From Mizuhopecten yessoensis (taxonomy: Eukaryota): a DNA stretch of 64,000 nucleotides. The DNA lies in contig NW_018408906.1 in NCBI RefSeq assembly GCF_002113885.1, positions 718,890 through 782,889 of the forward strand, given 5' to 3'. Shown here in pieces: positions 3,035 through 59,189 of this stretch; within the stretch, counting starts at the first letter, position 1, and each line of letters opens with the position of its first letter. Made by a program: the position numbers and the translations under genes. The notes under the pieces are model-generated. The model did not search any database. It saw nothing but the letters and a program-made list of their open reading frames with translations, and had not been told where the DNA came from.

Positions 3035-3276
3035 GTGACCTGGTCAATTTATCCCAATACTAGGTACTATATAGTGATGAAACTATTATGATTCTTGAAA
3101 GATTGCTTTTATGGAATTCATGTAAATATATGAAGAATTATTACCCATTGTATTTGTTTTAAAAATTGCATGTACATTGTACATACACCTTATGCATTTT
3201 TGTTAATACAGGTGCACCAATTCTCAAGGATCTCCTGACAGACACCAAATCACATTGAACACATACTTTGGTAACC

Positions 3277-6200: not shown

Positions 6201-9200
6201 TATTTAACCCTTTCATCACTGTAGACCATAATGGACTCATCCAGATGAATGTATGGTAGAGTCTACTCAAGTTATCTAGGGGTTAAATAACCTACATTGA
6301 CTTACTTTCAAGGTCACAGGAGTTATATTTTTAAAAATATTCAAAAAAACTTTTTCTGAATAACCTAGAGGTCTAGAGTAATGATATTTGTAATCAAAGT
6401 AGGAAAAAATGGCTATCTTTTACTGAAAATTGAACCGGAAATTTGATGTAATTTAAAATTTATTGACTAGAGAAAAATGCTGAACTTTTTTGTATATCGT
6501 GATATTTTTGTCCCAACAGACACACCATGGGTGTTACCAGTATACAGAGCTGTCCAAACAGGGAACACATACTAGGCACTGGCAGGTAATATGAATATAT
6601 TATAATCTAGTTTGATTTTTCACACGTTTTACTCTCAGAACTTGAACATGTTGGTGAAGGGTAAATATTTTGATATACAGACCTTTTTTCTTTAAACGCT
6701 GTGACTCTCTTTAACAGCAGTGATAATGATTAGATATAGAAGATAGTCTTGGTTTCTTGATGAATAACAGATATATTTCATGAATGGGTTGAAAATTTGG
6801 ATATTTTTCATGAGTGAAATACACCTGTTATACATAAAGAAAACAAGAACATTCTGTTTATGATATTTTTCTCTATAAAGATGTTGGCTTCTGAGAGCAG
6901 ATAATCCGTCTCATGCCAAAAAATATTGAGATAAGGAATACTGTATTGCAATGCCCTAATAAGAAAACAAATGTCGGAGCAGCAATGATGTCACAATTGA
7001 TAATGCCTATCAATTGATACTTTTCACACTAAACTCAGTTCTCTGGTTGGTCAATTTAGAGTTAAATTTAAAAAAAAAGTGTTATTTGTCAAATTAGAAA
7101 AATATCGAATTAGTTTGTATACGCCTGTCAAATTTGACGAGAGTATTATGGTAAGGGGGTTGTCCGTCCTTCCGTCCGTCCGTCCATCCGTCCATCCGTC
7201 CGGCGTGAACTTTTGTTTGTCTGGCAATCTCCTCCTACATTTTCCGGCCAATCTCTTTAAATCTTGGGTTACATCATAATCATGATGTGAAGTTGTGTCT
7301 CCCTTAAAAGAATTTTGATTCAACAATTTTTCCAAAAGTTATTGCCCTTTGTTCATTTCAGTATTTAATTTTTGTCCGGCAATCTCCTACATTTTTCGAC
7401 CGATATCTTTGAAACTTGCTATACATCATAATCATGATATGAAGTTGTGTCTCCCTTAAAAGAATTTTGATTCAACGAGTTTTGCAAAGGTTATTGCCCT
7501 TTGTTCATTTCAGTATCTGATTTTTTGTCCGGAGATTTTCTCCCACATTTTTTTTATAGCATGTCAGCTAACCACTCTTAGAATGATGCAAATCTTATTA
7601 TGTAAGAAAGTATATAACACTATATGACATTCGACGGGCGTATATTGTTCCGTCCCGCGGTACTCTTGTTACTGTTTAAAGATAAGCATAACACACACGA
7701 GAGGTGTCTGCACTTTTACAATTTAGCAATAAATACAGTATGCTAAAAATGAATTACACGATACCATACAGCTGTTTCGTCCTAAGACTCATTGGTGATA
7801 CTAGGGGCCAAAACATTGGAAATCGACAGGTTAAAAAATTAATAAGGTGTTCTTATTTGATTATGGAATTGCCTTTGTAGCTATGCGTAGGATCCAGACT
7901 TGTCGAAGTTGATGGTGTGTTTTCCTGTTTCTGATGCATTGTATGTTGACGCCTAAAACTAAAACAATGTATCTCTCTTTTACAGCTATGATGAAGAATT
8001 GATGGTGTGGGATACTCGTAAGATGAGGTCCCCCCTAGTGACCACGTCCCTGGGTGGGGGAATCTGGAGAATAAAATGGGAGCCCAAGCATGGACAACAC
8101 ATCCTTACTGCTACTATGTACAATGGTTTCCATGTTGTAGATGCGAGCAATCTCACAGGTAGGGACCATTACCTATACAGATACATGTACCTGTGTGTCT
8201 TTAAAATATTTCATGCATGTGTGTATTACCATCCTCAATACTTGAGGGGCTTCGCTCGCTTCGTTCTCTGCACCCCTGGAATATGTCATGACAAAATTGA
8301 AGGCTCAGTATGCGCCACATAATAATACAAGTAGACTAGATTGATCCTTGATGTATAACGTACATCATATATAAGAATCGCACAGCAGCATAATGGTAAA
8401 ATTGACTGGCTTTCAAGTCGGTTGTTACTCCTCTCTAATCTTCAAAGGACAGATTTTTGTTTTTTTCATGAGTTTCCATTTCATATGAGATTTATGAAAT
8501 GAGTCTTAAGAATTTTTCAATTTAGCGAGCCTCTGGCGAGCTCAAATGAAAAATTTCTGACGAGTTTCATAAATTTCATCTGAAATGAAAACGAGTGTAA
8601 GATCCTTTATATTCCATGATCAAGATTTGTGGCATTTATTTCTGTAAAACGACAATTTTCATGCAACCTTGAAAGGAAACGTCCTTTTGACTCCATTGTG
8701 CAAGTCTGTGATGTCATGTACTGGTCCTAGTCATGACGTTACAATTGAAACAATTGAAACTTACAACCAATCACAGGGCTGATAGGTCATATTACACGGG
8801 TTAATACGCAAACAAATATGACATGGGTATATTCACTGGATAACACAGTACATTATGTGATTGTTTGTTTGCCTGAGACCAATCTTCATGCCTTCAAATT
8901 TGCCACAACATTTTCCTGAGTTACAGAGAGGGTAACAGAGTGTAACCCCTGGTGCTCTATAAACTTGTGTGTATTTCAAACCCTCTGAACTTACAGGATT
9001 TGTCGTAATTAGCACCCAGGGCATTGAAAAGTTATCTTAAATGGGGGCTTATTATAATAAAATGACAGTTAGTATAGAACCAGTTGTGTAACGTCAATCG
9101 TTGCTAGGATATTATAAACAATCCAGTGTGGATGGAGGTTTGGATGTCAAATGTTTCATCATCTACATGGGAAGTTTAGGTCATGATTACCAGACATAAA

Positions 9201-9807
9201 TCCCTGTTTTAAAGTGAAAGTACTATAAATCATTGACAGGGCCAGGTCAGGTCTAGGAGGGGGTCCGGTCTATATCATTTAAATTCCTCCCAAACAGGGG
9301 AGGGGCGCTTATTACGACAAATACGGTATGTGTCTTATAACTTTAGAAAACTTGTACATGTATTATAAATAGTAGTTAGTTTGTGTATATAATTAATATT
9401 ATGATCTAAATTTGTGTATGTTACAAACCCATGTGTATTAAAATTGTAATTATCACAGAACCCTGTGTATTATTACAACATACATCTAAAGTTTTCCTGA
9501 ACTTGTATATATTTGTCTTTCAGAAGAGCCACTTCCTATTCTGTGTCACTATGACAAACACACATCCCTGGCTTACGGAGCGGATTGGTGCTACATGGAT
9601 CCCCCCTCTCCCTCCTCACATGCCCCTGGGGAGGGGGCAGACAAAAAGGACTTGCCCATCCCCTCGGGGAATACAGGCAGTGAACAAGGTCAAAGTGCAT
9701 CACAGGTTCCTGTTAACAATGACTTCCTAAAAACTATAGCGACTTGTTCATTTTATGATCATATTCTCAATTTGTGGCAAATCAATCTCAATTCATCATT
9801 AGGATAG
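3277..9807 (+). CDS. DPH7: Diphthine methyl ester hydrolase / WD40 protein DPH7 (WDR85), 7 coding exons, 408 aa
   Basis: join(3277..3420,4325..4653,5155..5312,5702..5774,6520..6585,7986..8158,9524..9807). All introns are GT-AG with matching phases; 1227 nt is open to TAG. The translation has DPH7-type motifs: TLDTEFSADSTEWCP, LLCGTYQL, GILDIKW, LSLDW, WKAHDFEAWITAFNYW, YTGGDD, HTMGVTSI, TGSYDE, GGGIWRIKW, HTSLAYGADW, ATCSFYDH. An acceptor at 3210-3211 implies an unlocated upstream UTR exon. Confidence 0.95.
3492..3577 (+). mobile_element. ~85-bp mini-MITE, piggyBac-like ends (copy 1 of 4)
   Basis: Same sequence recurs at ~6204-6287, ~9819-9901 (reverse) and 41922-42012. Consensus ends are TTAA-CCCTTTCACC...GGTGAAAGGG-TTAA. 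Confidence 0.7.
6204..6287 (+). mobile_element. ~85-bp mini-MITE, piggyBac-like ends (copy 2), inside a satellite-unit remnant
   Basis: ttaaccctttcatcactgtagaccataatggactcatccagatg...ctaggggttaa. Confidence 0.7.
7113..7670 (+). mobile_element. Non-autonomous Helentron-like element (HINE/pearl-type) in DPH7 intron 5
   Basis: T-rich start, subterminal IR (tatacgcctgtc...gacgggcgtata), (GTCC)n microsatellite 7162-7202, ~150-bp internal tandem units, 3' end ...ctcttgtt. Confidence 0.75.
8470..8612. repeat. Imperfect palindromic repeat core (non-autonomous DNA element) in DPH7 intron 6
   Basis: tttcatatgagatttatgaaatgagtc..gaatttttca / tgaaaaattt..gacgagtttcataaatttcatctgaaa, centred on gcgagcctctggcgagc. 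Confidence 0.55.
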
Positions 9808-11932: not shown

Positions 11933-14156
11933 GAAGGAAGTGGAGAAATAAAGCAATACACAGGAGCGCACTTCCCAAATACCGTTTCCTTCGCAGAACG
12001 CGCCCCATTGGAGAGCGCTCCCAAAATACCATTACACTGTTCTACTCATCAGCGCATCGCGCCCCGGCGCTCAAGGCCTTCTAAAAACCTGCTGTCACCC
12101 AGGCATATAAACACCTTGTTATACTGCCACCAGAGTCTAATAATAATTGCAAAATGGTTTGACGATATACAGAGGGAAATATATAAAGGAATCGTTTGAT
12201 ATATTTAGTTTTTTTTTGACAAACCCTGCTTTTCATATAGATAAATCCCACATGTCTGATGAGTTTTGTTTTATATAACAAACTATTTACGCAAAATTCG
12301 AAACAATCACATCATCTCAACCAACTCCGTCAAAGCACAAAAGATGATTCCGCACTTTCACGGAGTTGGCCGGAAAGTTACGACGGGATTATAAATGGGC
12401 AGGTAACTGCACGTCATTCTCTATACAGGGAGATAACTCTGCGCAACAATAGTATGACGTAACGTCAATTGTTCAATATCCCCTTCACAACAAGCGGCTA
12501 GCTAAAACAACGACACGTATTTTCTCAGGATAAAACCATAGACGAGTATTTAAAGCACCATGAACAACAACAATAACAACCAGGTAAGGTACATTTTGAG
12601 CATAAAAAAAATATTGTTTTACATAATTATAATGTGATGAAATTGACAGATTATTTTAAGTTGAATAGAAATTAGATACTTTAATTTAAATGACATAATT
12701 TCCCTGATTTTGTGGTGAAATTGCTTTGTTATTTTTATGAATCAAGCATAATTATGATGTCATAATTCATCAATTTTATTTTTATAGCACTTGATCAAAT
12801 TATTTCTAAATGAATTGATCTTCTGCATGGTAAAATGTTTACCTAGCCGAGTTATCTGTTAATACCAGTCGTTTTGCATTTTATATCAGATTCTTGACGT
12901 ATTGGAAGGATGGCCAAGTGATGTGTACGGCTTTTTGAGGGGGACACGGCCAAACGGATTGAACTTGTGGGTTACTTTCATGTCGGAGGACAAGGTAAGC
13001 TTTAAAGTACACAACATGTCAATCCTAGCATCTAGAAATCCTTAAAATCAATCCGCTAACAGGGAAATGAAAATTATATATTTATCTCGACACCATTAAC
13101 TTATTTTTGTCTTTTTTAAAGTCCGCTCTAAACAATTATTAACTATTTAGTAACGTATTTTTTCCTTTATATAAGGTCGGACTGAACGATACAAACGACG
13201 AGAAACAATGCAGATTGCCTGACATCTGGGAGGAGGAACGGAATAAGACGGATGAGGAGCAAAAATGGGTTAATGAGGAGGAGGAAGGGATGAATGAGGA
13301 AGAGGAACATTACAACCCTTACATTCGGTTGTATGCCGACTGTGAAGATTGGGGGTATGGCGACGGGATGCCTGCGGCCTGGCGACAATAAATCGAGGTA
13401 CAGCCATTTCACAAACTATGAGCTGATGTCAGTTCTAATTTTCGTTTGTTCTCAGAAGATTTACTTAAAAAATATAACTGTGTAATTGTCTTTCTACATG
13501 TAAATATACACTTCTGAAATAATGCATATAGATGTGTAACACAAATGTTTTTATCTTTTTTTTCCATTTTTCATTTCAGTTCACAAAAACCTTATGAGAA
13601 GTCAATCGCGCTAGCGACAAATGAGATGCAGCATGTTGAATGCGGGGGCTGTCGGACCCGGAACCGCACCAGAATGAAAACACCGAACTGATGATTTCAC
13701 AAAGTAAAAAAAAAAGCCGTATAATTTTATCATAAGTCTGTAGTTCTTTCAAAGTTTGACAATGCCCATTGACTTAATATTATTAAACGAAGTATCATAC
13801 AGGCCCATATTCGTACATTCTGTGCTTGGCTTTGAAGGTTAGTTGGATCCAAGCGGAAGTGAACATTTAATAGAAACATATTTGTTTGTACAAAATCTGT
13901 TCATTCTGAGTGATAGTATTAAATTCAAATTTAATTGTATCAACAAAATTTGATATATCTATTTTGATTTTTGGTATATACATTTTTCATTTCAATTAGG
14001 TTCTTTGTCAAAACAATTCTTGTGACGTAGTGATGACAATTACTGCTTACTATTTATAAGCTATGTTGTACACATAATCTGATGTTTTTGTCAATAAAAT
14101 ATATCTAACATTTGTATGTGTTTGTTCTATCGCAACATATCGGCAAACTCCGTTAA
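11933..14156 (+). mobile_element. 2.2-kb transposase-less element carrying a spliced gene (left copy; inverted relative to 25766-28173)
   Basis: Colinear reverse-complement similarity to 25766-28173, from GAAGGAAG(T/G)...GAGAAATAAAGC through ...TATCG(C/T)AACATATC; ends at TTAA 14153-14156. Confidence 0.75.
12560..13391 (+). CDS. Small acidic protein of unknown function, 114 aa, 3 coding exons (left copy)
   Basis: join(12560..12583,12890..12994,13176..13391), phase-0 GT-AG introns: MNNNNNNQ-ILDVLEGWPSDVYGFLRGTRPNGLNLWVTFMSEDK-VGLNDTNDEKQCRLPDIWEEERNKTDEEQKWVNEEEEGMNEEEEHYNPYIRLYADCEDWGYGDGMPAAWRQ*. Splice sites and frame are shared with the second copy. Probable 3'UTR intron 13398-13579; AATAAA at 14093. 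Confidence 0.7.
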
Positions 14157-15334: not shown

Positions 15335-16125
15335 CCAGGTCTCAAGCCTATACTGGTGGAGGAAGTCCCCGCCAAGCACATAAGGGGTCATAATCTCTTT
15401 ATTTCTCATTATATCTTATGATATTTACCATTTTTCTTCAGAATAACATAATAAAAGATATAAAACATAAATATTTCACACACACACACCATAATAGCAA
15501 AAATGTATATCTTGCCACAATAGCAACTCCTAACACCAAGAGTTGTCCGCCTTTCCCGATAACTTATAGGCAGTCTTCAAGGAATCACCAGACAAAAACT
15601 GTCATAATTTTTTTATTTCTCATGATGTCTTGTTGATATTTGCCAGTTTTCTTCATTATAACATACTCAAAAAAATACTATATTAATATTTCATATATAT
15701 ATCATTATAAAAAAAAAAACAGTTCGCTGACCACCATGACAACTTACTGTATGTCTCAAGCCTTTACTGGTGGGGAAGTCCCCTCCAAGTAAATATTGGG
15801 GCATACTTTCTTCATTTCTCATGATATCTTGATGATATTTTCCAGTTATCTTCAGAATAACATAATAAAGGATATAAAACATTAATATTTCACATATATA
15901 CCATTATAATCAAAAATTATATCCGATCACCATACCACATTATAACACTATAATACAATAGCAATACAATTTCATTTTCATATAGTGCATATTTCTTCAG
16001 AATTACATTTTAAAGGATATGAGATATCAACATTGCATAAATATATCATTCTATAAAATGTTCAATCTGCACACGATTCCTACCTATGGCTCAAGTCTAA
16101 CTCTGGCGGGGATTCACCCGCCAGG
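15335..16125. repeat. Degenerate tandem duplication (~400-bp period)
   Basis: tctcaagcc..tactggtgg(a)ggaagtcccc.ccaag...cttcagaataacataataaa.gatataaaacat occurs at ~15340 and ~15754, with a partial copy at ~16090. Confidence 0.6.
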
Positions 16126-16128
16126 TTA

Positions 16129-16755
16129 AGCCCCTGTCACACCTAGCCGCGTTGCCACTGCGATTGCACGGCGTTGTTAAAGTTCGCAGAGCGCCGTGAG
16201 ATCGCAGGAAAAATTGATATTTTTCATGAAGATGGCAATGTTACGGCGTTCTCACGGCGACCTTTACGTTTCAACGGAGCTCCATGGCGTTCTACCGCGT
16301 TCCTACGGAGATCTAGTTGGCAATTGTCTGCGCTCTCATGGCGCCCTCATGGCGCTTCCACTGCGTGCATCGAGTTTTCACGGCGCGTATAAGCGCGGTA
16401 GAGACACAGTGTCATCTCAAAGAACGCCGTGCAAGCGCCACCTTTAACCATTGCGTTCGCATTGCGACCTCTGTGCGCGCCCGCGGCGATCCTGTGGCGT
16501 TATAGGAGACCTAACTGCGCTGCTACGGCGACCTCACAGCGATCCCACTGCCCTCTTATCAGAACGCCGAGCGACGGCGTTTGTTTTCGGGATGCTCAAA
16601 GTGCGCGCCGTCGCTCGGCGTTCTATGCGATCCAACCGCGTTCACTGGCGATGCCACTGCGTTGCCGCGGCGATGCTTGCGATTCCACTGCGCGCAGATC
16701 GGCGTTCTGGATTTCTCTTGCACGCCGTGGGAACGCGGCCCTAGTGTGGGAGTGA
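16129..16755. mobile_element. GC-rich MITE, PIF/Harbinger-like termini
   Basis: Sharp GC-rich island; AGCCCCTGTCACACCTAGCCGCGTTGCCAC at the left end pairs with GTGGGAACGCGGCCCTAGTGTG(GG)AG at the right end; left flank TTA. Confidence 0.7.
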
Positions 16756-17586: not shown

Positions 17587-18168
17587 TTTTCGACTTTGGT
17601 TGAATTATTTGTACAAAATAAAATAAAGTTTTACACCCTATGACGACATATAGCGGCACAGTATAAAAATTATGGAGGCCCGCTATGATATTTTAGGGAA
17701 AATACATCACACCTGACATAATAAATTGATGTTGTGGCTGTATTTATAATTCTATCTCTCTTTATTGATAGTAAATATGTTTGGGAATATATTAGCTATT
17801 ATATAAACCATAAAAAACATAATATGTACATTTTTGTAGTCAGAATGAGAAAAATATCAAGGCACGGTACGAGTATTTCTGAATTTGCCGATATGGTTAT
17901 ATATAATATTCGTTCATAACGATACATTTCGAAAATAAACTTCGTTATTACATCAATTTTCGACGTTGGTTGAATTATTTGTACAAAATAAACTAATGTT
18001 TAACACCCTAGGACGACATATAACGGCACAGTTTAAAAAACATACGGAGGCCCGCTATGATATTTTCGGGAAAATAGTCACACCTGACGTAATAAATTAA
18101 TGTTGTGGCTGTATTGGTAATTCTATCTCTCTTTATTGAAAGTAAATATGTTTGGGACAATATTAGAT
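17587..18168 (+). repeat. ~370-bp repeat array upstream of the env-like gene (about 1.6 units)
   Basis: Unit ttttcgac.ttggttgaattatttgtac...acacccta.gacgacatata.cggcacag...ggaggcccgctatgatattt...tcacacctgac starts at ~17587 and ~17956. Confidence 0.85.
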
Positions 18169-19764
18169 TATTTTCCTGTATTTACCTGTTCACCAATAGG
18201 AAATACTGTGTTAGTTATAGGAATATTTAACAAATATATTTCCTGATTTTTCGTAATATTTACTAGAATTATGAATCAATATATACAATATTCAAGTTAT
18301 TACTTAATAAAAACACATCAAAATACATTAACTGAAAATCTGCTTTTATTAATTTCATATAAAATCAATTTTATAAATTTTTATTATGCATTTACATGTA
18401 TGTTATATATAGATTTCATAAAATAGAACTAAATTTAGCTAGAAATGTATGACAAATAAAATCAGTAAAGACAGAGATCATGTATTATATTAATAAATAT
18501 GCAATAACAGATGCAAAGCTAGGAATGAAAATAAATAAAACGAATTAATTACATGTACACATGGAATACTCAGCGCTGGTTGATCAATTCAATCATATTC
18601 ATAAAATACACACATGCACAAAGATACATGATATAAAACTAATATAATAGCACTAACTTACTAAAGGTGAAATATTGGAAAGTCAATAAAAATCACAGAT
18701 AAGTCCATGATTTTAAGAAATCCTAGCAAAGCACCAAATAAAAATTCTATAACAAGCACATTTATCACAATGTCACTCTAAATGCAAAAGATTGGTTGTA
18801 TATATTTGTGGATTTCACGTTACTGTTTTGTATGATCTAGCTGATGAAAATGGTATATGATATGAAAAAAATGTCTAAAAATGATGAAAATAGACTATAT
18901 AAAAGCTACATGTATATGACAGGACTGTATATATGATAGAGATAATGTGGGAGAACACAGGTAAAAACCAGGTAAAATATATATGAAACAAACTATAACT
19001 GCTATCACAACATTACTGCCTCTATGTTTTTTTTAAAAAAAAGTGGGAGAAAGGAGAACACACCGATGACACCTTATCTCCTGTTCCATACGCCCGAGGG
19101 GTCTCTTTGAGTTTCTCTGAAGAAAGTTGTACTGTTTTAATCGCCTGAAGCGTGAAACTGTCGGAAACACCCGCCTTAAACCTGTGCTATTATCACAATT
19201 ATTTCACGTGACAGTTGACATGGGATTAACGCTTCTCAATAGAGGATTAACTCTATCATTACTATAAAATCCGGGGCAGAATCGTTTCAAATCAGTTCGT
19301 TCTTCGATTCGAAAGCGAATACAACTCTTTGTTGCATTGAATTTTCTTTGCGAGTTTTGCATACCTATTTGCGAATTTATCCATCTTCGTACATAAACAA
19401 AACTGTTCAAGGTAAGAAATATTTCAATAATATCTTATTAAGGTTGACAGACATGTAGTGGAAATATTTAAAGGAAGCTAGTTCAGAGTTCATGAACAGC
19501 AGACAATTCTTGCCTAGCAATTCAGCAACTGACTTCTAATGAGAAGCGTAAATTATTATGAAATTGTCCTGACAAAATAAGTTATTTAAATGTTTTGTGG
19601 ATTTCGTCATAGGGTATTAACATAGATTTTAATAGGTCATATAGTCTATTGATTCTTATAATGTATATAAGATACAAGTTAAAGGAACGGAAAACATCAT
19701 ATGAATGTTAAATTGATAATTTACCATGGCCACCATTAATCACATCAAACAATTCTATTTTCAG

Positions 19765-22176
19765 ATGATATCATACATCACAGTACTTTTCTTGATAGGA
19801 TTGGCAGCTGGCGATAGTGATCTTAAGCGGACAAACGCTGGCGTGATTTTTAAATCACGAGGAACAATTCAGAGTTCGTCCAGCGTTTGGTACCATACCT
19901 TCGCATTAGATCTGCCGACACTGCCAAACAAATGGCTGCATTACCAAATGGCGGATCCTGGTATGCCTCCAATGAAGTGTACAGGAAACCCGGGTGACAG
20001 TGAATGCAGCATGTCAGCAATGTCGATGTCAAATTTCATTATTTCATTGAATGCAGAGGTATGTATTTTTAGCAAATTATTTTGTAACTTGTGTTTTCGG
20101 TTTTTTTGGTAAAATAAAATAAAGTCAAACCTGTATTAAGAGGCCACCCAAGGGACCGGCAGAAATTGGCCGCTTAAGACAGGTGTCTGCTAAAACCAGG
20201 CTCACCCGAATATCACAACCAAGTTTTCATACATCCACGGGTTATAATGACATTTTCCCGGCAATATAGCCTGCTATGTTATTTTGATTTTTTCTCCCTT
20301 CATCAACAGGGGTACGATTTCATACTTGAATATAAATGTATAATCAATAAAATACAAAGGCGTTTTGGTGATTAATTTCCTAAAATGATAAATTTATTTT
20401 TGTTTGGCTACACAGGTGTTCCACATACGTTTTGCGCTAGCAGACAACACCAGTACTGAAATCTACATGTATTTATTAGCAAATTATTTTATAACTTATT
20501 GTTCCGTTTTTGGTAAAATAAAGTATTTTCTTACCTTAGTATTAAACAAACAATAATTTACTCGTTATTGACTTTTATAGGTTGTAAAGACGTTTGATCA
20601 TTTATTGGACCTGACCAGAACTCTCATCCCAAAACATGTATCACCAGATCAAAAGAGAAGAAAATGGTTTGCCCCACTCTCAATTATTGGTTCGAGTTCG
20701 AAAACAATATTTGGAACAGCAACCGTAGAAGATGTTGAGACGGTTTCTTCCAATATCAACGAATTGATCAGATGACAGAGACTTACTGCTAAGACCATGG
20801 TTGCCCACGAAAGGAATTTCCAGTCATTTGTTAAGTTGTCTAGTTCACCTTTTAATGGGTTAAAGAAGAAAGTTTCTGATAATCACGAGGCTCTTAAAAT
20901 GATAAAGAATCTTGAAATAAATAATACTGACACCATCAACCGGGGAATAGATTTACTTGAAATTGCAATGTTTCAGATGAATAGAACAAATTCCATCATT
21001 CACCACCTTCGCGATATTGGGCAAGCTATTGAACAACTGGTACAAGGTTATCTCTCACCTTTACTCGTTTCAGGGAAAGCCATCAGAAGTGTCGTCAAAG
21101 AGATCAACGACAAGATCATCGACATGACGAATACAAAAGATCACGGTGTACTTTCTGACTACGGTTTTGGTCATCATAACTCTTTTTTTTGTCAATTGCA
21201 AGGAAATACAATATTGATTACTCTTAAACTTCAGGTAGTACCATTGTTAGGAAAGACACATCTCTACCAGGTAATGGTGTATCCAGTTCCAACAACCAAA
21301 CAAAGTAGACATGCAACAAAGATAGCAGGTCTTCCAGAGTATGTTATAATTTCTGACGATTACGGAGGTAGGAGGTATTCACCAATTACACCTGTTCAAT
21401 TGTCTAACTGCAGAGGGATTCATCATGTGGTATGTCCATTTAATTTAGTTTACACAACAGTTTTAAAGGAAAACTGTCTTACATCCCTCATTAAAGATTC
21501 TTCAGATAAAATAGCAAAGTTTTGTGATTTTAGGTACTTCCGTGACCATCTGGAGCCGTCCATAGAGCCGATATCGGACAACAGCTTTTCGGTGTATGAT
21601 ATCCCCAGGCTCTCACTGAATATAAGAGGACATACCGAAGATGTCGAAGGCTGCCATCTTTGTATTATTACCATACCATGCCATGCCAGAATCGAGACTT
21701 ATGACATGACCAGTGACAGAGTGCTTTCCCAGAAATGCAATAGCGAGGAGACCGAAGTGACACGCGATCATCTTGTAAACTTGGCGATGGTAAAGGCATT
21801 CATTGCAGAAAACAATCAGCTTGGATTTACAGCATCATCTGTCTTCAGTAAAGCACAGGATGTTAAAGTACCCAAATTTGACTTTTTCGAACACCGCTAT
21901 CATGAATTCCTTACGACCGACCAGAAAACGAACCTTAAGCTGAACAAGATGGTAGAAGCATCAAAAAGACAGGAAAAAATATTTCAAAATATTGCAGAAC
22001 CCTTTATCAAAGCTAGTGAAGAAAACGCCACTTGGTTAACCTCGAGTCTTTCCGTTGGAGATATTGTGGTAATAATATGCCTTATTGTTGGGACAGTGGT
22101 TTTCATACGACTTATTTTTATTGTGAAGAGATTGGGAGCAATTATTGCTGTTAGTACAAAAGGCGAAGAAGCATAA
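19765..22176 (+). pseudogene. Intron-containing envelope/fusion glycoprotein gene (Gypsy/errantivirus Env, baculovirus F-like), ~629 codons, one in-frame TGA
   Basis: join(19765..20058,20581..22176), phase-0 GT-AG intron. Signal peptide MISYITVLFLIGLAAG; basic site KRRK(W) followed by fusion-peptide-like FAPLSIIGSSSKTIFGTATVEDV; heptad-rich region; Cys-rich ectodomain (GCHLCIITIPC); TM IVVIICLIVGTVVFIRLIFIV. TGA at 20773-20775. Probable 5'UTR intron 19412-19764. Confidence 0.8.
20123..20200 (+). mobile_element. Tc1/pogo-like MITE end inside the env intron
   Basis: agtcaaacctgtattaagaggccacc...ggccgcttaagacaggt lies between two copies of a ~60-bp duplicated intron segment (~20061 and ~20468). 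Confidence 0.5.
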
Positions 22177-22476
22177 TGAGAATCTACAAAATTAGACTCT
22201 ACCATTCATGGCATGATAAAGTCTGGAGAACAATATGAAAATCTAGAACAAAAGATCAAGACGATAACTAATATATGTACACATATTATACAGAAACTGA
22301 GGCATTCTAACCAAGGAACACTAATGAAGACTAGGAAAAGAGTAAGATTTTAGTTATTGAACCAGTTATAGGCTCTTTTGTTCAGAAATATAAACCTGAT
22401 TATACTATAAACAATAAAAAACAGATAGCTGACCAAATAAAAAGAATTTTATCTAAATATTAACCCACAAAGGATG

Positions 22477-23505
22477 AGTCACACCTGACGTAATTAATTA
22501 ATGTTGTGGCTGTATTTATAATTCTATTTTTCTTTACTGATAGTAGATATGTTCGGAAATATATGAGCTATTATATAAACAATATAAAATCATTATATGT
22601 GTATTTTTGTAGTCAGAATGAGAAAAAAGTCAAGTCACGGTACAAGTATTTCTGAATTTGCCGCTACATTTATATATAATATTCGTTGATAACGGTAGAT
22701 TATGAAAATAAACTTTATTATAACATTTTTCAACCTATGTTAAAGTTTTGTACAAAAAAAATAATGTTTAACACCCTAGGACGAAATATAGCAGCACAGT
22801 CATAAAAATAAGGAGGCCCGCTATGATATTTTCGGAAAAATACATCACACCTGACGTAATAAACTAATGTTGTGGCCGAATTGATAATTCTATCTCTCTT
22901 TATTGATAGTAAATATATTTGGGAATATATTAACTATTATATAAACAATACAAAAAACATTATGTGTGTATTTTTATAGTCAGAATGGTAGAGAAATAAA
23001 GGGACGGTACGATTGTATTTTAAATTTTCCGACATGTTTTTATATAGTATTGGTTTATAACAATTAATTATGGAATACAAGTTTAATATAATTTCACAAT
23101 ATGACCCTGATTCAAGTATTAACTTTAATAGTAATTATTAAGAAAACTATTGACCTTTACACTTCCACATCCCCGGGGGGTGTAACTATCAGAATGAGAG
23201 AAAAAAATCAAGGCACGGTACGAGTATTTCTGAATTTGCCGGTTATATGTAATATTCGTTCATAACGATAAATTATGAAATTAAACTCGTTATAATATCA
23301 TTTTTCGACTTTGGTTGAATTATTTGTACAACATAAACTAATGTTCAATACCCTAGGTCGTCATATAGCGGCACAGTTTAAAAACTACGGAGCCCCACTA
23401 TGATATTTTCGAAAAAATACATCACACCTGACGAAATTAATTAATGTTTTGGCTGTATTGGTAATTCTATCACTATTTATTGATAGTAAATATGTTTGGG
23501 AATAT
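22477..23505 (+). repeat. ~370-bp repeat array downstream of the env-like gene (about 2.5 units, same orientation as 17587-18168)
   Basis: tcacacctgacg.aa...gtggctgtatt...aattctat...gatagtaaatatgtttgggaatat units at ~22478, ~22845 and ~23422. Confidence 0.85.
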
Positions 23506-25765
23506 GTCATTTTTGAGTTGTAAGTGAACTTTGATAAATGAAAAAACAAATCAGGACCTGGAACTCACTTCAGCCACAGGTGTTGAGCAAATATTATATG
23601 ATATATATAATATACAATACTAATAATTGATATCTTATACATGTACTTATAGCATATAAAGGGTGTCATTCACCTTTTAATTCACTTAAAATTGAGAGAT
23701 ATTTGAAAAAGCCAAGCTTGAGATGTGTCCAGAAGCCATAACTCATAACAAAAGGAAAGTGTATAGTCAATATGCAATTTATGCAAGTCTACTTAAATGA
23801 GTGAAGTTGTAAATTTCAAGTCAAAATATTATTTAGAAAGGAAATTATTGAGGAAACAAATTACTTTTCAACTGAAAATGACCGAAAAGACCCCCCTGAC
23901 TTATTCCTTCGTTTTATATAAACAATCTTTAAGTGACGATTGAATTTCTGTCATTTTTCATTCTGTTACATATGCTTGTTTATTTATACATGTTTTCAAA
24001 AACAGAAATGGCATTATTTAGGTTTTTAAGCTCATTTTGAAAACAGCAAACTTTCGGTCATATTTGTTCATTTCATTTGAATAGACGTTATGAATCGTAA
24101 TATGGGCATAAGGTAAAGAAGTGGGACCTTGACTTTTATTTATGATACTAGACACTCAGTCTTGGTTAATTACAATAGCTCAATACAATGAAATAAACAT
24201 GAAATTTAATTAATTTCTGGTTCAAGTAAACATTAAATAATTTTTCTGATGATCATCAATTTTTAGATTTTTCGTCTTGAAATTTGGATCACACATTAGC
24301 GACTTGCGAAGTCGCTGATATGTGATCGATTTTTAGGGACTGAAATGTACATGTCTAAAATAGCATGTAAAATGCGGAATTATAACAGTTTCAACATAAC
24401 ATTACACACAACGTTTGTTTACATCAAGGACATCACAAACATACCAAAGGGAGACGTATACAACGTAAATTATTTTTTTTATCTTATTAAAGTTATTTTA
24501 GTCCTAAAATGTTGATCACATATAAGCGTCTTGTAATATGGGCATAAGGTAAAGAAGTGGGACCTTGACGTTACTTATTTATGATACTAAATACTCAGTC
24601 TTGGTTAATTATGCTCGTGCCCCACCCCACACATTATAATAAATATTTTCATATCCCTCTTTAAAGGTCGTTTTCGATTTCCTTCTTACCTGCCAACTGG
24701 TAAATTTGACTTTTTGATCATATATTTCTGTTTACTATATTAATGCACGGAAGTAATGTCGTTTCTCGACTGTTAGTGAGTGCAATTGGTTGTCTGAGAC
24801 CCGGGTCACATAACAAACAACGTATATATACCTCCCTTTTAGAACATAAACACTTGCAATAAGTACTCTTTTATAATAAAGAAAATTATTTGTATATATT
24901 CCTTTCTGGTAAAGAAGATAATACTGTAAAGGTTTTTCATAAATCATACATTATAAGCCTTCTTGGCCCCTTTTTATCGCCCTCCCACGACACATAAAAA
25001 CTAATGTGTGAAATCTATACGAAGTTACAGCGACTGGCGTAGATGGGCTTCTTCAACAACATCACCATCATCATCATCATCATCATCATCAATCATCATC
25101 ACTAGCGGTTCATTCTTTCTTAGTCGTTAGACGAGAAAAACTGTTGGTAAGTGTGTTAAGAAATTGTTTGCATTGAACTCATGTACGACGTAATAATAAT
25201 AATAATATACAACATTTATATAGCGCCCTGTATAATTTGTAAAATTACTCTAAAGCGCTTTACAACATATGGATAATAGTAATGGTTATAATTGTGAGGG
25301 CGGGGTAGGGGGGTCGCAGTTGAGCGGTACGGCTGAAATAGCGCTTTATTCTCAGCCATGTTCTCTATTACACGCGTCACGACTCGAATAGGAGTTACGT
25401 CCCTTTGTACACTCGGTAATGCTTGTATGCTAGTTATTACTCAGCTTGTTATTTTAAATGTGTATTTGAGTCAGACCATTCATTGTTACTCTGTTAATTA
25501 ACAGCTATTTGAGAGAGATTACTCATTGTAATAGACCATACTAGTTAGTAGCTAACTAACGCGATCATTATTACTTAATTGTCACATCTCCACGTAGATA
25601 ATTTAGAGCAAGGCAGTTCGGTCATATGCTATGTAGTTTTCTCTATGTAATGATCAATGTTCATCATGATAATAGTTCTAGATACTGTCATATCTCTATA
25701 TGTTTGTAGTTGGGAATTAGTTAAGATAACACTCACTGTGCACTCTGCCAAAAGTTCCGATTTTA

Positions 25766-28173
25766 TTAAGGAAGACATCTCCCGCCAGATATGTTACGAT
25801 AAACCAAAATAGGGAAGGTAGATCAAGAACAAACACATACAAATGTTATATATATTTTATTGACAAAAAAAATCAGATTATGTGAACAACATATAGCTTA
25901 TAAAAAGTAAGCAATAAGTGTCATCATTACGTCACGAGAACTGTTTTGACAAAGAACCTAATTGAAATGAAAAAAATATACCAAAAGTCAAAATAGATAT
26001 ATCAAATTATATATTTATACAACTAAATTTGAATTTAATACTATTTTGATGCATTTCAATCGCTCAAAAAGAACAGATTTTGTACAAACAAACAGATATT
26101 TTTCTATAAAATGTTCACTTCCGCATGCATCCAACTTAACCTTCAAAGCCAAGGATAGAATGTACGAATAGTGTCCCTTTTGATACTTCGTTTAATAATA
26201 TCAAAGTCAATAGTGCAATGTCAAACTTTGAAAGAACTACAGACTTATGTTCAAATTATACGTCTTTTTTTTTACTTTGTGAAAACATCAGTTCGGCGAT
26301 TTTCATTCTGGGGCGGTTCCGGGTCCGACAGCCCCCGCATTCAACATGTTGCATCTCATTTGTCGCTAGCGAGATCGACTTCTCATAAGGTTTTTGTGAA
26401 CTGAAATGAAAAAGGAAAAGAAAAATACCAGATTAAATCCATGCGTTACACATCTATTACATGTAGAAATAATACGCTGTAATATTTTAAAAGTAAATCT
26501 TCGGAGAACAAACGAAAATTTGAGAAGAATTGAAATCAGCTCATAATAACTACTAAACGCTTTCATGTATCTTGAATTCATGTATGTGAAATTACCTAAT
26601 TTAAGTTTACCTCGATTTATTGCCTCCATGTCTCTGGCATACCGTCACCATATCCCCAATCTTCACAGTCGGCATACAACCGGAGGTACGGGTTGTAATG
26701 TTCCTCCTCCTCATTCACACACTTCTGCTCCTCATCTGTCTCATTCTGTTCCTCCTCCTCATTCACCCACTTCTGCTTCTCATCTGTCTCATTCTGCTCC
26801 TCCTCATTCACCCATTTCTGCTCCTCATCTATTTCATTCTGTTCCCTCTCCCAGATGTCAGGCAATCTGCTTTGTTTCTCGTCGTTTGTATCGTTCAGTC
26901 CGACCTTAAATGAAAGAAAAAAAATACGTTACTAAATAGCAGATTTAACTTTTAGTGCGGACATAAGAAAAAGACAATGATAAGTTTATTTTATCGGAAA
27001 AACAAAATATAGTATCGAGATAATTATGACATTTTTATTTCCGTGTTAGCGGATTGATTTAAAGGATTTCATTATGCTTATTAAGATTGACATTTTGTGT
27101 AGTATAAACATTACCCTGTCCTCCAACATGAAAGTGACCCACAAGTTCAATCCATTTGGCCGTGTCCCCCTCAAAAATCCGTACACATCACTTGGCCATC
27201 CTTCCAATACGTCAAGAATCTGATATAAAATACAAAGTAGCTATAATCAAACACTCAGTTAGGGGGACCTTTTCATCTTAACCACGCATCAGATAAATTC
27301 AATGTAGAAATAATTTGTGCATGTGTATTTGAAATAAAATTATAACTTTAAATTAAGACATCGTATGCCTGGTTCTTAAAATTAACAAGAGAAGTTCACC
27401 GCAAAATCAGGAAAATTATTTTACTAATTAATTTATCTCTATTCTATTCAAATTAAAATAGTCTTTCAAATTTCTCCACCATATAGAGAAGAAACATTCT
27501 AATTCCAAAAAAAATATCTTACCTGGTTGTTATTGTTGTTGTCCATGGTGCTTTAAATACTCGTCTATGGTTTTATCCTGAGAAAATACGTGTCGTTTTG
27601 TTTTAGCTAGCCGCTTGTTGTGAAGGGGATATTGAACAATTGACGTTACGTCATAATATTGCCACACAGAGTTATGTCCCTGTATAGAGTATGAGGTGCA
27701 GTTACCTGCCCATTTATAATCCCGTCGTAACTTTCCGGCCAACTCCATGAAAGTGCGGAATCATCTTTTGTGCTTTGACGGACTTGGTTGAGATGATGTG
27801 ATTGTTTCGAATTCTGCGTAAATAGTTTGTTATATAAAACAAAACTCATCAGACATGTGGGATTTATCTATATGAAAAACAGGATTTGTCAAAAAACCTA
27901 AATATATCAAACGATTCCTTTATATATTTCCCTCTGTATATCGTCAAACCATTTTGCAATTATTATTAGACTCTGGTGGCAGCATAACAAGGTGTTTATA
28001 TGCCTGGGCGAAATCAGCTTTTTAGAAGGCTTTGAGCGCCGGGGCGCGACGCGCTAATGAGTAGTACAGTGTAATGGTATTTTGGGAGCGCTCTCCAATG
28101 GGGCGCGTTCTGCGAAGGAAATGGTATTTGGGAAGTGCGCTCCTGTGTATCGCTTTATTTCTCAACTTCCTTC
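25766..28173 (-). mobile_element. 2.4-kb transposase-less element carrying a spliced gene (right copy)
   Basis: Reverse complement of 11933-14156. Its own ends on the + strand are TTAA-GGAAG (25766-25774) and CTTCC-TTCA (28166-28174), i.e. a 5-bp mini-TIR in a TTAA-like context. Confidence 0.75.
26617..27546 (-). CDS. Small acidic protein of unknown function, 138 aa, 3 coding exons (right copy)
   Basis: complement(join(26617..26904,27115..27219,27523..27546)): MDNNNNNQ-ILDVLEGWPSDVYGFLRGTRPNGLNLWVTFMLEDR-VGLNDTNDEKQSRLPDIWERE(QNExDExQKxVNEEE[E])x3-HYNPYLRLYADCEDWGYGDGMPETWRQ*. Confidence 0.7.
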
Positions 28174-28720
28174 AAGGTGTTTACAGGTGTCTCCGTGTCC
28201 GAGTCATCTGAATCTTCATCTTTAGCACAATGTACACGAAGACGGAGTCGCCTATAAAATCTCTCCATATCCTGAATTAATACCGCATTGTTGGGATTTC
28301 TGGGGGTAGGACAGAAATTGAGACCTTTAGAGAGGAGCGAGTTCTCTTGTTCTGAAAGGTTGTGGCCGGAAAGGTTTACTACTGTGTTGTTGACTGCTTT
28401 GTTAGTAGATTTATGTTTGGTGCGCCGTCTCCTCTTACGGGGTTTACGATTAGTGGGAGTCGCGTTGGAATTTCTTTGTTCGTTTCTCATGCAGAGAGGC
28501 ACGTCTTTTGTTCTCGAAGTGTTTTATCTTTTGTAGGAGTGTCGTTGTTTCATTTTCCGATGTTGTGGACTTTAAGTTATTAAGACCTGACGCCAGCTTC
28601 TTACGTGCAATACTGAGTTTCTTGTTACATACTCCCTGTAGCAGTGCAAAAATGATTCATCCGACAGACAGGCACTGTCTCCTCAAAGCGATTAGTGGCC
28701 GACTTTGACATAGAGCCAAT
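28174..28720 (-). mobile_element. Penelope-like retroelement, N-terminal fragment truncated at the right-copy element
   Basis: Basic KPRKRRRRTK then VVNLSGHNLSEQENSLLSKGLNFCPTP...DMERFYRRLRLR, the motif that precedes the RT in Penelope-like ORFs. Confidence 0.8.
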
Positions 28721-30419
28721 AGAGCCAATATAAGGCGAGCACTTAGATTTTAAGCCTTTGTGTACAATATCTGCCTGCAGTTACGAGCAATGATACTTTT
28801 AATATTTTAAATTACACCAGGTTGCTGTTCACCACTGGATGTCGGAATACTAAGGGGTCGGCATAGAAAGTTTTCATTTTATGCAATTAATTTAGTGTGT
28901 GTTGAATACCTCAGTGACATGTACAGTCCTCGACACGTGTCCATATCCAAAATTACTCCAACCAGTTTATCCTCCCATAATGCAGTAATGTAATGTACTC
29001 CCCTATATATTTTACCCCCAACAACACTTTACAATCCTTTTGCATCTCTTTCCCTTCTTCCTCCTCCATCCTCTTCTCTCCTATATACTTATATCTATAT
29101 GCAAAATATTCGTCAGTGCCGTCCAATCGCTGTTTTACAAAAAAGGAGACGGATTAACATAAGTACTTTGTACTTGTTTTCGAATCCTATATGTATATCA
29201 TGTTTGCATTACTGGAAATTTATATTGATAATAAAATAAAGTTTAAACTAATATTTCGTTTAGTATTTTACTACATGGCTGGTTCATTAAATTTGTTTCA
29301 AGACTAACTCAATTCATCACCCCATGAAATCGACCAAAGCAAGATTCAAGTATAATTTGAGCGCGCTTTCTCTCTCTCGGGCTTCAATCAAAACTCCCGG
29401 ATTATTTTGGTATATGCATGTAACTTTGCGGACTTAATCAATCTGTGCTTTATAACGAACATTTCATGGTTAAGATATCAAAAGTCATACTAATGCGACT
29501 ACAGTTATTTGATCACATGTTCTTTTACTTCTTAACCTTTACCTTCAAGTTCAACTCGGTCTTTGTCTAAATCGGCTGTACTTGTCATATTTAAATCGTG
29601 CGTCAAACCTGAAACGCAATGACGTCAAAGTTATGTTCCACTATTGTGACGTCAAAGTCATGTTCCACTATTGTGCGTCGATATATTTTACAACCAATTC
29701 GTTCAGTGTTGATGTAATTTTTTACATTTGTGCAATTATCAACCTTTTTGTATTTCTAATTTGATGTAATCGTTCCCGTAAATGTATATTTGTACAGTGT
29801 TGTTTGGCCCTATACGACTGGCATTGCCAATGGTCCGTGAAACAATACAAAAATCTAAAGACAAAATAAAAGCAAATCTGTTAATATTTTGTCGTTGTTG
29901 TCTACAAATAACTATGTATGTGCTATTGCTAGACATCCTTGAACTCCCACTAACAGTATTTTCCTCCGATTTATCTATTATTAAAATAATATGTTACTTG
30001 AATATAATTTGAATATGTAATTTGTATTTGGAATTACAGTAAGTGACGAAATATTTTATCACCGCTGTTTCTTTTTTTGTTTTGTACTTTTTTATATTTT
30101 TTTCCATAAAAATGCAAATATATCATGCATAAACATTATTCCTCTCACACATTACAATTCATTCATTAAATATTCATTTATAATAAACTGCATATTTCCA
30201 GGTATAATTAATTATGTTTATGCATAATTAAATTACAGCTAAATTATGTCTGTTATATAAAAGCATTGTTTAGAAGTGATAGAAAGGTCCTAGAGGTATA
30301 ATAGGGAATGTAAGACTAAGAGAGAGAAGAAAAAAATGAGGGGGNNNNNNNNNNNNNNNNNNNNNNNNNNNNNNNNNNTCGATAGTTATATGTTCATATT
30401 TTGGCAAAGACAGGGTTTA

Positions 30420-31455
30420 AACAATATTAATTAGACTTTTCCATTTTTTCCATTCATTATTGAATTTCAATAAAAAAATCATTCACTTTTATTAACAGCA
30501 ATATATCTCTGAGTAAAATATGTGTCCTTGATAAGGTTCTTAAGTGCAGCTACTGACAATGACATTTGTAAACATCTCGATTTATAAATATGTTGTTTTA
30601 TAAGTAAAATGATGGTATTATCTACCCTACTACTGATACTATTTTGATTAAATAAACCGAAAATGAAGGTTTCCTTGTTAAAACCAAATGGGATTAACAA
30701 TGCATCAAGAAGGAACTCAAAATTTTGTAAAAAATCTTGTACTTTCTCACATCCCCATAGTGTGTGAATTATTGTCTCTATTTCAGTCTTACATTGAAAA
30801 CAAAGAGCACTATCGGTAACAGCTGCTTTAACTAGATAAGAGTTTGTTGATTTATTCTGTATTGAAGCCATTGTAATTTTGAATTTCTAGTTACTGTAAA
30901 AGGAATCATATATATCAATTTCCATGCGTCATCATCGAATTCAAACAATTCATTCCTTTTGTTTTTCCCAGTGGATATGGTACTATTTTGGCACAACAAC
31001 TTATACAAATCTTGAGTTCCTTTTTTATGCCTCATAAATATTTCTAAATTTAAGGGTATGTATGGATAACTAATCAAAGTATTTAAAGTATCATCATTGG
31101 ACATGTAGGTTTTTTTTTATATAATATTAATAATACCTTAATATGTAAGAAAGTTAGTTTTTACATCAAATTTTTGTGAAAATTCTATAAAACTATAGAA
31201 AATACCAGAGTTATTATCAAGTTTATTATTATTAAGTCATTTATAATTATAACACCCTTTTCAAACCATTGCTTATAAAATAAACATTTGGCTCCTACTG
31301 TAAAATATTTGTTATACCAAATAGGCATTTTCAATCTACTTTTCATTTCTCTTATACAATCTTCTTTATCAGCTATTTTTCTCCATGATTGGAACACATC
31401 TTTCCATGGAGCTATTAATTTTCTCGTATGGAGAACTACACAAGTTGCTTTATCC
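30420..31455 (-). mobile_element. L1/Tx1-type LINE 3' fragment (C-terminal zinc-finger region), frameshifted
   Basis: MPIWYNKYF...LFYKQWFEKGVIIINDL; WKLIYMIPFTVTRNSKLQWLQYRI; CFQCKTEIETIIHTLWGCEKVQDF. Confidence 0.85.
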
Positions 31456-32369: not shown

Positions 32370-33725
32370 GTGCTGAGGGGTAGCGCCCAACATATGGGAA
32401 TTTGAAGTTTAAACCTTTGAAATCCTTTTTCTTCTGTACCGTTGGAGGTAATTTATCCAAATTTGGCCTGGAACATCCTTAGGCAAAGGGGACTCAATTT
32501 TGTATAAATGCCAACAGATGATGTGTTTCCTCTGGGTGTTCAAATCAAATCAAAAGTTTTATTTAACGTCGATATGGTTAAAAAACAATACAACATTAGC
32601 TCGAATGAGCTATTAAAACCGTCACATAAAATGACATGCACAGTTACACAATAAATATTTGGCAAGAAACATATTAAAAGATGAGCACTATCTAATAGAG
32701 AGGTGACATAAGTAGAGGTAAGCTTTAGCTAAAACATGTATAACTGTATTGTGAGCCGATGTGTTTTGTCTGCATGTGTTGCATTTGCATTTTGGCCCAT
32801 ACCAGTTGTTTATTAGTGTCTTAAATTGTGTTAGTGTAGTTGTTGTTCTGAAGTGGTGTGGTAGGGCAGTCCATATTTTAGGTGCTTCAGATCGAATTGA
32901 GTGTTTACCATACTTTGTACTTGTAGTCCTAACATGTGGTATATCTGCTGTGTTGTGATATCTGAATGTGTATGATTTTTCTGTGATGTTGATAAGGTTG
33001 TGTAGGTATGTTGGTGTCTGTTTATTTGTGATTTTAAGTACTTCTATTGCAAAACTTCTGAGTCGTCTGATTTTGAATGAAGGTAATTTTGAACGGGCTA
33101 GTAAATTTTCATATGTATTTTTGTGTTCATCGTAAATATAATTTAAAGCCCTTTCTTGGGTTTTTTCTATTTTGTGTGTTTGTCTCACCCCAAAAGTGCC
33201 ATGTAAGTGGACAGAAATTAAAATTTGAGAGAATAAATGAATGGTATATTGTAAGTTTGCCTAATCTGTTGAGGGGCAGGGTCCAATAGGAGAATTTGAG
33301 GTTTAAATCTTTAAAATCTTTTTCCTTCTGTACCATTGGAGGTGTTTTATATAAATTTGGCATAGGGCATCCTTGGCTAAAGGGGACTGAATGATTGATA
33401 AACTGAAAATGTGGCTCCTCTGGGCGCAGAGAGATGGTGCCCAAAAGGGAAATTTAAGGTTTATATATTTTAAATCCTTCTTATGTACCTACCACTGGAG
33501 GGATATTAACCAAATTTGGCCTGGGGCATCCTTGGGCAAAGGGGATCTCATTGTTGTGTAAACAGAGGGTACGGCCCCATCTTGATGCAGAGGGGCAGCT
33601 GGGCCCAATTGGGAAATTTGAGGATTAAATTTTAAAATCCTTCTTCTGTTGTACCATTGGAGTTAATTTATCCAAATTTGGCCTGGACTATCATTGGGCA
33701 ATGGGGACTCAATTTTGTATAAAAT
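32370..33725. repeat. ~160-bp satellite units (HINE-type internal repeat) interrupted by a LINE fragment
   Basis: aaatccttcttctgtaccattggagg..atccaaatttggcctgg.gcatccttgggcaaaggggactc units at 32370-32510 and 33270-33725; related units at 40300-40670 and 42800-43015. Confidence 0.7.
32540..33270 (-). mobile_element. CR1/L2-group LINE 3' fragment
   Basis: KLTIYHSFILSNFNFCPLTWHF..., KIEKTQERAL...LPSFKIRRLR...YGKHSIRSEAPKIWTALP, followed by a (TTTGA)n tail at ~32540-32555. Confidence 0.85.
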
Positions 33726-33812
33726 ACATTGATAAATATTTAAAACTTGTGTTTTTCAATATATAAATACAAATCCAGGCCTGTTTTTTCTTTTTGTCCC
33801 CTACAGTTCATC

Positions 33813-58302: not shown

Positions 58303-58386
58303 TGAAAGAAAATGGCGTCATTGATGCAAAAAAAAAAATATTGTGAGTACATTTTTACCAATCATCAATGATACAAAGAATCTACA

Positions 58387-58919
58387 TACGGGTGACCGGG
58401 ACAAGTTCGGCCACCCCTGATGTTTTTGTTTTTGAGCTAATACAATGTGTTAACAACTTTAAGGATGTTAGCAGTTTAGTTGGCTGGGCACTCACACGAA
58501 AAAATGGCAAGGAAAACTCTAATGGAAAATTACTAAATAGGTGAAAATTACTTTTGAGAGAAAATCATGATCTCGCTTCTAGTTATGCAAACTTTCTGTA
58601 AACGGAATTGCTACTTTTTTACGGTGTATGTGTAACACACTGACAGTTTCAAATGATATACATAAAAGCCCAGCCAAGCACTTGCTACCATATTGAATTG
58701 CTGTACGAAATATCAATTTGGGCACCGTGGCAAGTTCGGCCTATGTAACACATTAAACTTACCCGAATGCCTGGCCGAACTTATCCCATGGAAGTGCTCG
58801 TTCGGCCATCCGATCTTCCGACACTGAAAGTTAAATAATGTTCAGAAACGGACGTGCTGCCATACTTCCCAGAACGGACTTGAATAAAAATTGGGCCGAA
58901 CTTGCCCCGATCTCCCCTA
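58387..58919. mobile_element. TA-flanked MITE (counterpart at 36903-38697 is interrupted by a HINE)
   Basis: TA-CGGGTGACCGGGACAAGTTCGGCC ... GGCCGAACTTGCCCCGATCTCCCC-TA. Confidence 0.7.
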
Positions 58920-59189
58920 TTGTTATGTCTCTCTTAATCTCATTAGAGCTTATGTTTTATTGTTATTCTTGGACTAGCCGACTATAAGTAAAGTTTATCT
59001 TATCTCATTCTGAAAGCAGTATTCTGAATTGGTAAATATCAGAGATCAACAAAAGCTACGCTCTTTTAAGACTTTGCCTTTTCATATTATTTTTGGTATG
59101 TTCTACTGGTCGAATTTATGTGCAGGTAACATAAAATAATGATTTTGATAAAATAATATGTTTTATTTTGATGGTCATTTTTTGTGTGT

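Follow-up and report, generated by a model that had tools for sequence, protein, structure and literature searches.

What is a lone, intron-split envelope (env) gene doing in a scallop genome, and where did it come from? The gene lies on a contig of Mizuhopecten yessoensis, within a stretch of 64,000 nucleotides that was analyzed as a whole and is called the window here. On the plus strand of the window, two coding exons of 98 and 531 codons are joined across a phase-0 GT..AG intron. Coding exon 1 (19765..20058) encodes a hydrophobic leader and the N-terminal subunit, and corresponds to positions 5 to 57 of the family profile and to residues 52 to 133 of P0075, the nearest relative at 34% identity. 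Coding exon 2 (20581..22176) encodes the cleavage site, the fusion peptide, a long HR1 helix, a Cys-rich head, a transmembrane (TM) helix, and a short tail, and it covers profile positions 89 to 613 of 801. A first-pass annotation of this DNA, made from the letters alone, had proposed a retroviral-type env that was either domesticated by the host or carried by a DNA element.

A three-sequence profile collected 3,581 relatives, mostly 780 to 850 amino acids long, and exon 2 matches the family profile with an E value of 1e-124. Named relatives come from Mytilus, Lingula, and Haliotis, and a search for shorter relatives found none among 775 candidates. Comparison with Pfam Baculo_F, a check that the first-pass annotation had suggested, gave a divided result: the window protein itself had no match, but 9 of the 36 alignment members did. 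Atlas returned Baculo_F clusters (0.96), with a structure TM of 0.60. At all six loci tested, the env relative follows immediately after an RT-RNaseH-integrase pol, and these upstream pol ORFs match a protease at four of the loci and a chromodomain at one. P0075 is sister to the window protein with full support, and both fall within the pol-linked env radiation, in trees whose deep branches are poorly resolved. Judged by these sequence relationships, the window protein is an F-type env of a lophotrochozoan Ty3/gypsy errantivirus lineage. The env identity given at first pass was thus right, and the donor was an errantivirus, not a retrovirus or a baculovirus.

A structure model of exon 2 (pLDDT 76, pTM 0.52), in which the long HR1 helix spans model residues 84 to 154, finds matches at low TM-scores among pneumovirus and paramyxovirus F proteins, baculovirus F, chu-like glycoproteins, and an abalone herpesvirus protein. 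The best Foldseek matches were HMPV/RSV F (E 5e-8, TM ~0.28), and the best Z in a structural comparison was 7.8, where the bar of the tool is 8 (rmsd 7.5, 276 aligned). On this model, the protein is predicted to adopt a class I F-like fold. The fusion-peptide-like segment, the Cys-rich ectodomain, with nine cysteines in exon 2, and the TM helix, all of which had been pointed out earlier, are present. The cleavage site and fusion-peptide segment (20653..20724, plus strand) contains the family motif G-x-x-S-K-x-I-F-G-T-A-T. The site had been called basic, with errantiviral and baculoviral furin sites in mind, and it is basic, indeed multibasic, reading QKRRK followed by WFAP, but it departs from the furin consensus R-x-K/R-R. 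That consensus is present in 10 of the 16 pattern-matched family members (33 examined), and since the other six also lack the strict form, cleavage may persist. The N-terminus is hydrophobic, but the signal peptide that had been reported there was not picked up by a hydropathy scan of 19 residues.

The protein is also shortened relative to its family. It stops about 190 positions before the end of the profile, and the second TM helix and the C-terminal domain, which may have had a role in particle assembly, are lost. Two C-terminal TM helices occur in 10 of the 13 family members checked; hydropathy gives a single one here, at 22063..22125 on the plus strand (exon-2 residues 495 to 515). A 56-codon in-frame stretch past the terminal stops had no significant match to the family by itself. 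The window protein retains 28 of the 36 near-invariant columns, the lowest of the 36 rows, next to 29 for P0075, and two of its cysteines are missing together. Nothing of the remainder of an errantivirus accompanies the gene. Neither gag nor pol was found in six frames of the whole window by profile or tblastn searches, and no LTRs remain in it, in agreement with the first reading of the surroundings. Gag, pol, and LTRs have been lost, and the env is an orphan.

The CDS intron (20059..20580, plus strand, 522 nucleotides) contains a high-copy repeat (~20120-20470) flanked by two ~80-nucleotide copies that are 79% identical. Comparison with the family profile found no env homology inside the intron, and it was therefore inserted, unlike the intron of Iris-B, which was formed out of coding sequence. 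Its removal restores colinearity with P0075, with exon 1 running to residue 133 and exon 2 resuming at residue 134. Both exons are matched at 16 of the 46 metagenome loci, and none of these 16 has an intron-sized gap at the intron position; the projected gap is -77 to 0 nucleotides at 15 of the 16, and 234 nucleotides, in frame and without stops, at one. From these comparisons, the intron was acquired after env capture, the relatives being intron-less. The first-pass annotation had conceded that it would be wrong if 20059-20580 were an unspliced later insertion and the closest homologues were intron-less ORFs within gypsy elements. The closest relatives are indeed of that kind, but the segment is spliced. 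It had also taken the intron to mean propagation as DNA. LTR elements package unspliced RNA. The argument from the intron is not a strict one, as Penelope-like elements (PLEs) keep their introns and are able to mobilize host genes that contain introns (PMC3846280, PMC8557442, PMC6431247).

Splicing was judged from contigs placed on 18900-22470 from four probable RNA runs, a status that is guessed, none of the four being recorded as RNA; such contigs carry neither strand nor expression level, and rare forms drop out of them. An exact 522-nucleotide skip, joining 20058 to 20581, is present in contigs of three of these four runs, from two studies, which bears out the CDS intron called at first pass. 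In the fourth run, a contig passes the donor unspliced. In a second run set, made up of one probable RNA run and three of DNA type, the skip is not among the 15 of 94 joints listed, which speaks neither for nor against an intron-less DNA copy. The 5' untranslated region (UTR) intron that had been proposed at 19412..19764 (plus strand) did not hold up: its ends are canonical, but it is unspliced in all four runs, with the 19411/19765 joint listed in none and with donor and acceptor each read through in three. The TATAAAA reported earlier is located at 19263..19269 (plus strand), as a putative TATA-like box. Probable-RNA contigs extend upstream of it, and depth climbs at ~19540-19680. Downstream, a GT..AG intron of 2683 nucleotides in the 3' UTR (22342..25024, plus strand) is indicated by one run, in which a 30-nucleotide loose end at 22341 matches 25025 onward; its donor is read through in two other runs. 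The non-coding exon that follows (25025..25146, plus strand) is indicated by the same loose end, and its 3' limit is a guess from a donor-like site. The spliced contigs in three of the four probable RNA runs place transcription of the env gene outside a provirus, and we infer that it is transcribed as a host-like unit, with CDS and 3' UTR introns.

Which copy gives rise to these contigs can be gauged from the DNA-type runs. In all three, the TM and 3' region, through which the probable-RNA contigs run, is unbranched and of single-copy-like depth, depth serving only as a hint because summed contig depth is not copy number. The 5' two-thirds of the gene shows extra variant letters or copies in the DNA runs, and a 62-nucleotide deletion joint lies in the 5' part in two of the three. 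Given a variant 5' part together with an unbranched 3' region, partial paralogues are probable, and the 19765-22176 locus is the likely source of the transcript.

The window allele, which is that of the assembly, is null. An in-frame premature stop is read in the ORF at 20773..20775 (plus strand), so that the window copy has no open CDS. All four probable RNA runs have another letter in this codon, and those samples are therefore without the stop. The 3' part of the gene is identical to the uncharacterized NCBI locus LOC110467003 of Mizuhopecten yessoensis, whose models begin downstream, avoiding the stop and dropping the N-terminus. An NCBI-like skip of 20667-21073, inferred from P0002, would bypass the stop; it is listed in none of the four probable RNA runs. 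One haplotype is common to the runs and has 12 coding differences from the window. With the stop site excluded, 5 of these are synonymous and 6 non-synonymous, giving a pN/pS of 0.33 (p=0.07; two haplotypes, 11 sites). Set against the upstream non-coding sequence, non-synonymous differences number 6 in 1473 versus 15 in 863 (p=0.002, or p=0.003 counting the stop site, again from two haplotypes). The contig of X2 has no coding indels and three upstream of the coding region, and the 1.9-kb frame of the other haplotype is free of both stops and indels. These allelic differences suggest modest purifying selection on the env ORF. Protein searches for an orthologue yielded the gene's own NCBI models and then only relatives of 27 to 34% identity, which leaves domestication unproven.

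The env cassette lies inside an array of ~370-bp direct repeats on the plus strand, with its left part at 17587..18171 and its right part at 22479..23505. The repeats were considered as LTRs and rejected, the array units being 81 to 89% alike and without clean LTR ends. Array and cassette are in turn enclosed by inverted arms of 2.2 kb. The left arm (11933..14128, plus strand) carries a gene of three coding exons for an acidic protein of 114 amino acids, NCBI LOC110466992, and the right arm (25826..28173, minus strand) carries its intact paralogue; both genes are oriented inward. Two further copies of the arm gene lie near each other on another contig. The arm protein found no match in Pfam or NCBIfam and no reliable one in Atlas. 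Between the arms, exons are 87 to 96% identical and introns 73 to 82%, and no target site duplication (TSD) of 4 to 12 nucleotides was found within 8 nucleotides of the arm ends. This uneven identity and the missing TSD point to an old inverted gene duplication rather than fresh terminal inverted repeats (TIRs), and the arms were rejected as TIRs of a DNA element on the same grounds. In all three DNA-type runs, contigs bridge both left-arm junctions and the inner right-arm junction, and arm depth in the DNA runs is low. An ORF fragment at 28174..28700 (minus strand), which by one motif would be the truncated N-terminal part of a Penelope-like ORF, had no library match and stops at the edge of the right arm.

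Each arm also has a degenerate hammerhead-like motif, one at 12256..12312 on the plus strand and a second copy from 27852 on the minus strand. They are the only two in the 64 kb, compared with 0.02 per shuffled window, under a descriptor that was relaxed after the motif had been seen. The motif fails the strict descriptor, has no Rfam hammerhead match, folds no better than shuffles, and is without a palindromic helix III, a helix described for hammerheads in PMC4209133.

Our preferred account, which we hold tentatively and would place somewhat below an even chance, is that of a lone, spliced errantivirus F-type env that gained an intron, was truncated, and became a young, non-essential host recruit, likely working as a decoy or entry block and not as a fusogen. 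The ancestry in the Ty3/gypsy errantivirus env family, the loss of gag, pol, and LTRs, the gain and splicing of the CDS intron, the truncation after the first TM helix, and the null allele of the assembly are shown by the results above. The host may transcribe the gene and bring the protein to the membrane as a trimer, modest selection may maintain it, and the trimer might block or decoy related errantiviruses, as has been proposed for Iris. A decoy is favored because the cleavage site is altered, the C-terminal part is lost, and a null allele is tolerated. The host domestication put forward at first pass is plausible to the extent that the gene is transcribed, has a host-type 3' UTR intron, and is under modest constraint, but the protein searches turned up no orthologue, and the allele in the window is null. 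Also against recruitment, the test of synonymous against non-synonymous differences was not significant, the protein has the fewest conserved columns, and variant and deleted 5' copies in the DNA runs are what decaying copies would be expected to leave. A decaying relic would account for several of these points directly: an old fragment of an errantivirus env that was duplicated locally and is transcribed by chance from adjacent repeats, with no present function, would readily have a stop in one allele, variant and deleted extra copies, no orthologue in protein searches, and UTR introns that are read through, in a tract that is repeat-rich and rearranged. We regard a relic as possible but unlikely, given the stop-free and indel-free frame of the other haplotype, the excess conservation of non-synonymous sites, the exact splicing of the CDS intron despite a later repeat insertion, and the paired loss of cysteines. 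A syncytin-like, co-opted fusogen acting in gametes, muscle, hemocytes, or larvae is quite improbable. The fusion peptide, HR1 helix, head cysteines, and TM helix are kept, a multibasic site persists, and domesticated mosquito envs retained their cleavage site (PMC1262188), but the sequenced animal has a null allele, no orthologue was found, and the furin consensus is lacking.

The remaining accounts treat the gene as cargo or as something other than errantiviral. There is a slim chance that it was carried by a non-autonomous DNA element (foldback, Maverick, or Helitron-like) or came from an RNA virus or herpesvirus instead of an errantivirus. The long inverted arms and internal repeats would suit such an element, and the fold matches include chu-like glycoproteins and the abalone herpesvirus protein. 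Neither a TSD nor a transposase was found, however, and with the arms being diverged gene duplicates, the DNA-element carriage suggested at first pass finds no backing. A viral-contig scan with query A4 recovered one chu-like locus, and scans with A1, the PLE-like ORF, the arm protein, and P0075 had no matches. The chu-like glycoprotein L047 reaches 57 bits (20%) versus up to ~230 bits (27 to 30%) for the best env loci, and the herpesvirus match is at 17%. Slightly less probable still is carriage by a PLE, in which a 16-kb unit between the hammerhead-like arms was or is mobilized in trans without loss of its introns. The two hammerhead-like motifs sit in the arms and nowhere else in the 64 kb, the PLE-like fragment terminates exactly at the boundary of the right arm, and another contig has a further pair of arm-gene copies close to each other. 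PLEs also form inverted repeats and keep introns, and an intron-bearing NRPS gene was mobilized by them (PMC3846280, PMC8557442). Against it stand the shortcomings of the motif, the missing TSD, arm introns that have diverged further than the exons, the pattern of an old gene duplication, the low arm depth, and the size of the arms, 2.2 kb where the pLTRs in PMC3846280 are ~200 bp. Its fullest form, a giant non-autonomous Penelope-type retroelement with hammerhead-bearing, gene-carrying inverted arms and a captured errantivirus fusogen, spreading with its introns, is just as far from likely.

Several known systems resemble the decoy env that we prefer. F-type ENV proteins of "ancient" Ty3/gypsy errantiviruses have been described in molluscs, annelids, and brachiopods (Chary and Hayashi, PMC13524379), and the scallop protein resembles them in its 27 to 34% identity, its layout of signal, cleavage site, fusion peptide, and TM helix, and its paramyxovirus-F-like fold. 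In contrast to those elements, it is without gag, pol, and LTRs, has a CDS intron and a host-type 3' UTR intron, has lost the second TM helix and C-terminal domain, and has a non-canonical cleavage site. A search of the intact-element table of PMC13524379 found Mytilus but no Mizuhopecten element. Drosophila Iris and Iris-B and the domesticated mosquito envs likewise went from orphan F-type env to host gene (Malik and Henikoff, PMC1262188). Iris derives from Kanga of the BEL clade, has been conserved for at least 25 Myr, and lost its cleavage site, and a trapping or defense role was proposed for it; Iris-B gained an intron from exonic sequence (PMC1262188). Unlike Iris, the scallop env has a gypsy donor, an intron of non-env sequence gained with no coding loss, no orthologue that we found, and a null allele. 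In Adineta vaga, an intron-bearing NRPS gene mobilized by Penelope lies between PLE-linked repeats, much as here. Its pLTRs measure ~200 bp, it has a TSD of 8 bp, and an allelic site is empty (PMC3846280); none of these features is shown for the scallop env.

The novelty of the locus lies in its host phylum, its donor lineage, and its inserted intron; env co-option as such is already known. Documented cases come from vertebrates and from a few insects. Among vertebrates, syncytins, suppressyn, and Fv4-like restriction envs are captures that serve fusion or block fusion and entry, and these are retroviral gamma-type proteins of another fold family, whereas the scallop protein is F-type. In the literature searched, whose coverage leaves out most subscription papers, we found no mollusc with a co-opted env, nor any paper naming the LOC110467003 or LOC110466992 loci. 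An env that is spliced and truncated and at which a null allele still segregates would be domestication caught in progress, and the natural null would make the function of the env testable through genotyping. The clean gain of an intron amid intron-less relatives offers a datable example of intron acquisition, and the PLE reading, if true, would mean an envelope-carrying retroelement without LTRs. Orphan envs of this kind are easily overlooked, as NCBI models drop the N-terminus, Pfam has no match, and orphans fall outside surveys of intact elements. The stop at 20773-20775, the 3' UTR intron, the C-terminal loss, the non-canonical cleavage site, the inverted arms, and the ~370-bp repeats had all been absent from the first-pass annotation.

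The inverted arms that flank the env cassette each carry a small acidic gene of three exons (window 11933-14128 and 25826-28173), which was found in the scallop Mizuhopecten yessoensis alone. Two further copies, OWF44501 and OWF44503, lie on a different contig, with accessions one apart. When the pair in the arms was compared, the 625 nt upstream of the gene showed 96% identity, whereas the introns showed 73 to 82%. A degenerate hammerhead-like motif is found in each arm, at 12256 (+) and 27852 (-), about 320 nt inward from the outer end. At the boundary of the right arm ends the truncated start of an ORF (28155-28800, -) that is Penelope-like by its motif.

Downstream of the two terminal stop codons of the env gene, a 56-codon frame continues in phase (22180-22350), and the 3'UTR splice donor lies within it.

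The glycoprotein of a viral-collection contig (L047, 189-9945) belongs, as a remote relative, to the F-type family of the env protein (Baculo_F, E 2e-7). This contig has the order glycoprotein, N-like, small ORF, and L-like, and in this it resembles a chu-like RNA virus. Two metagenome contigs, L040 (1-14233) and L018, carry pol-env units in tandem, the next gag-pol following directly after env.

Elsewhere in the window, the multiexon WD40 gene at ~3270-9807 (+), read as DPH7 in the first-pass annotation, gave only weak beta-propeller matches in Pfam. A palindromic, GC-rich insertion of 631 nt occupies 16114-16746, and its joined empty form is present at high depth in the DNA runs. LINE-type 3' fragments lie at 30479-30886 (-), with a weak zf-RVT match, and 32688-33260 (-). 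An old direct segmental duplication (35592-39275 and 55176-59090) retains 70 to 84% identity, and close to it an ORF at 33744-34946 contains 84-nt repeats.
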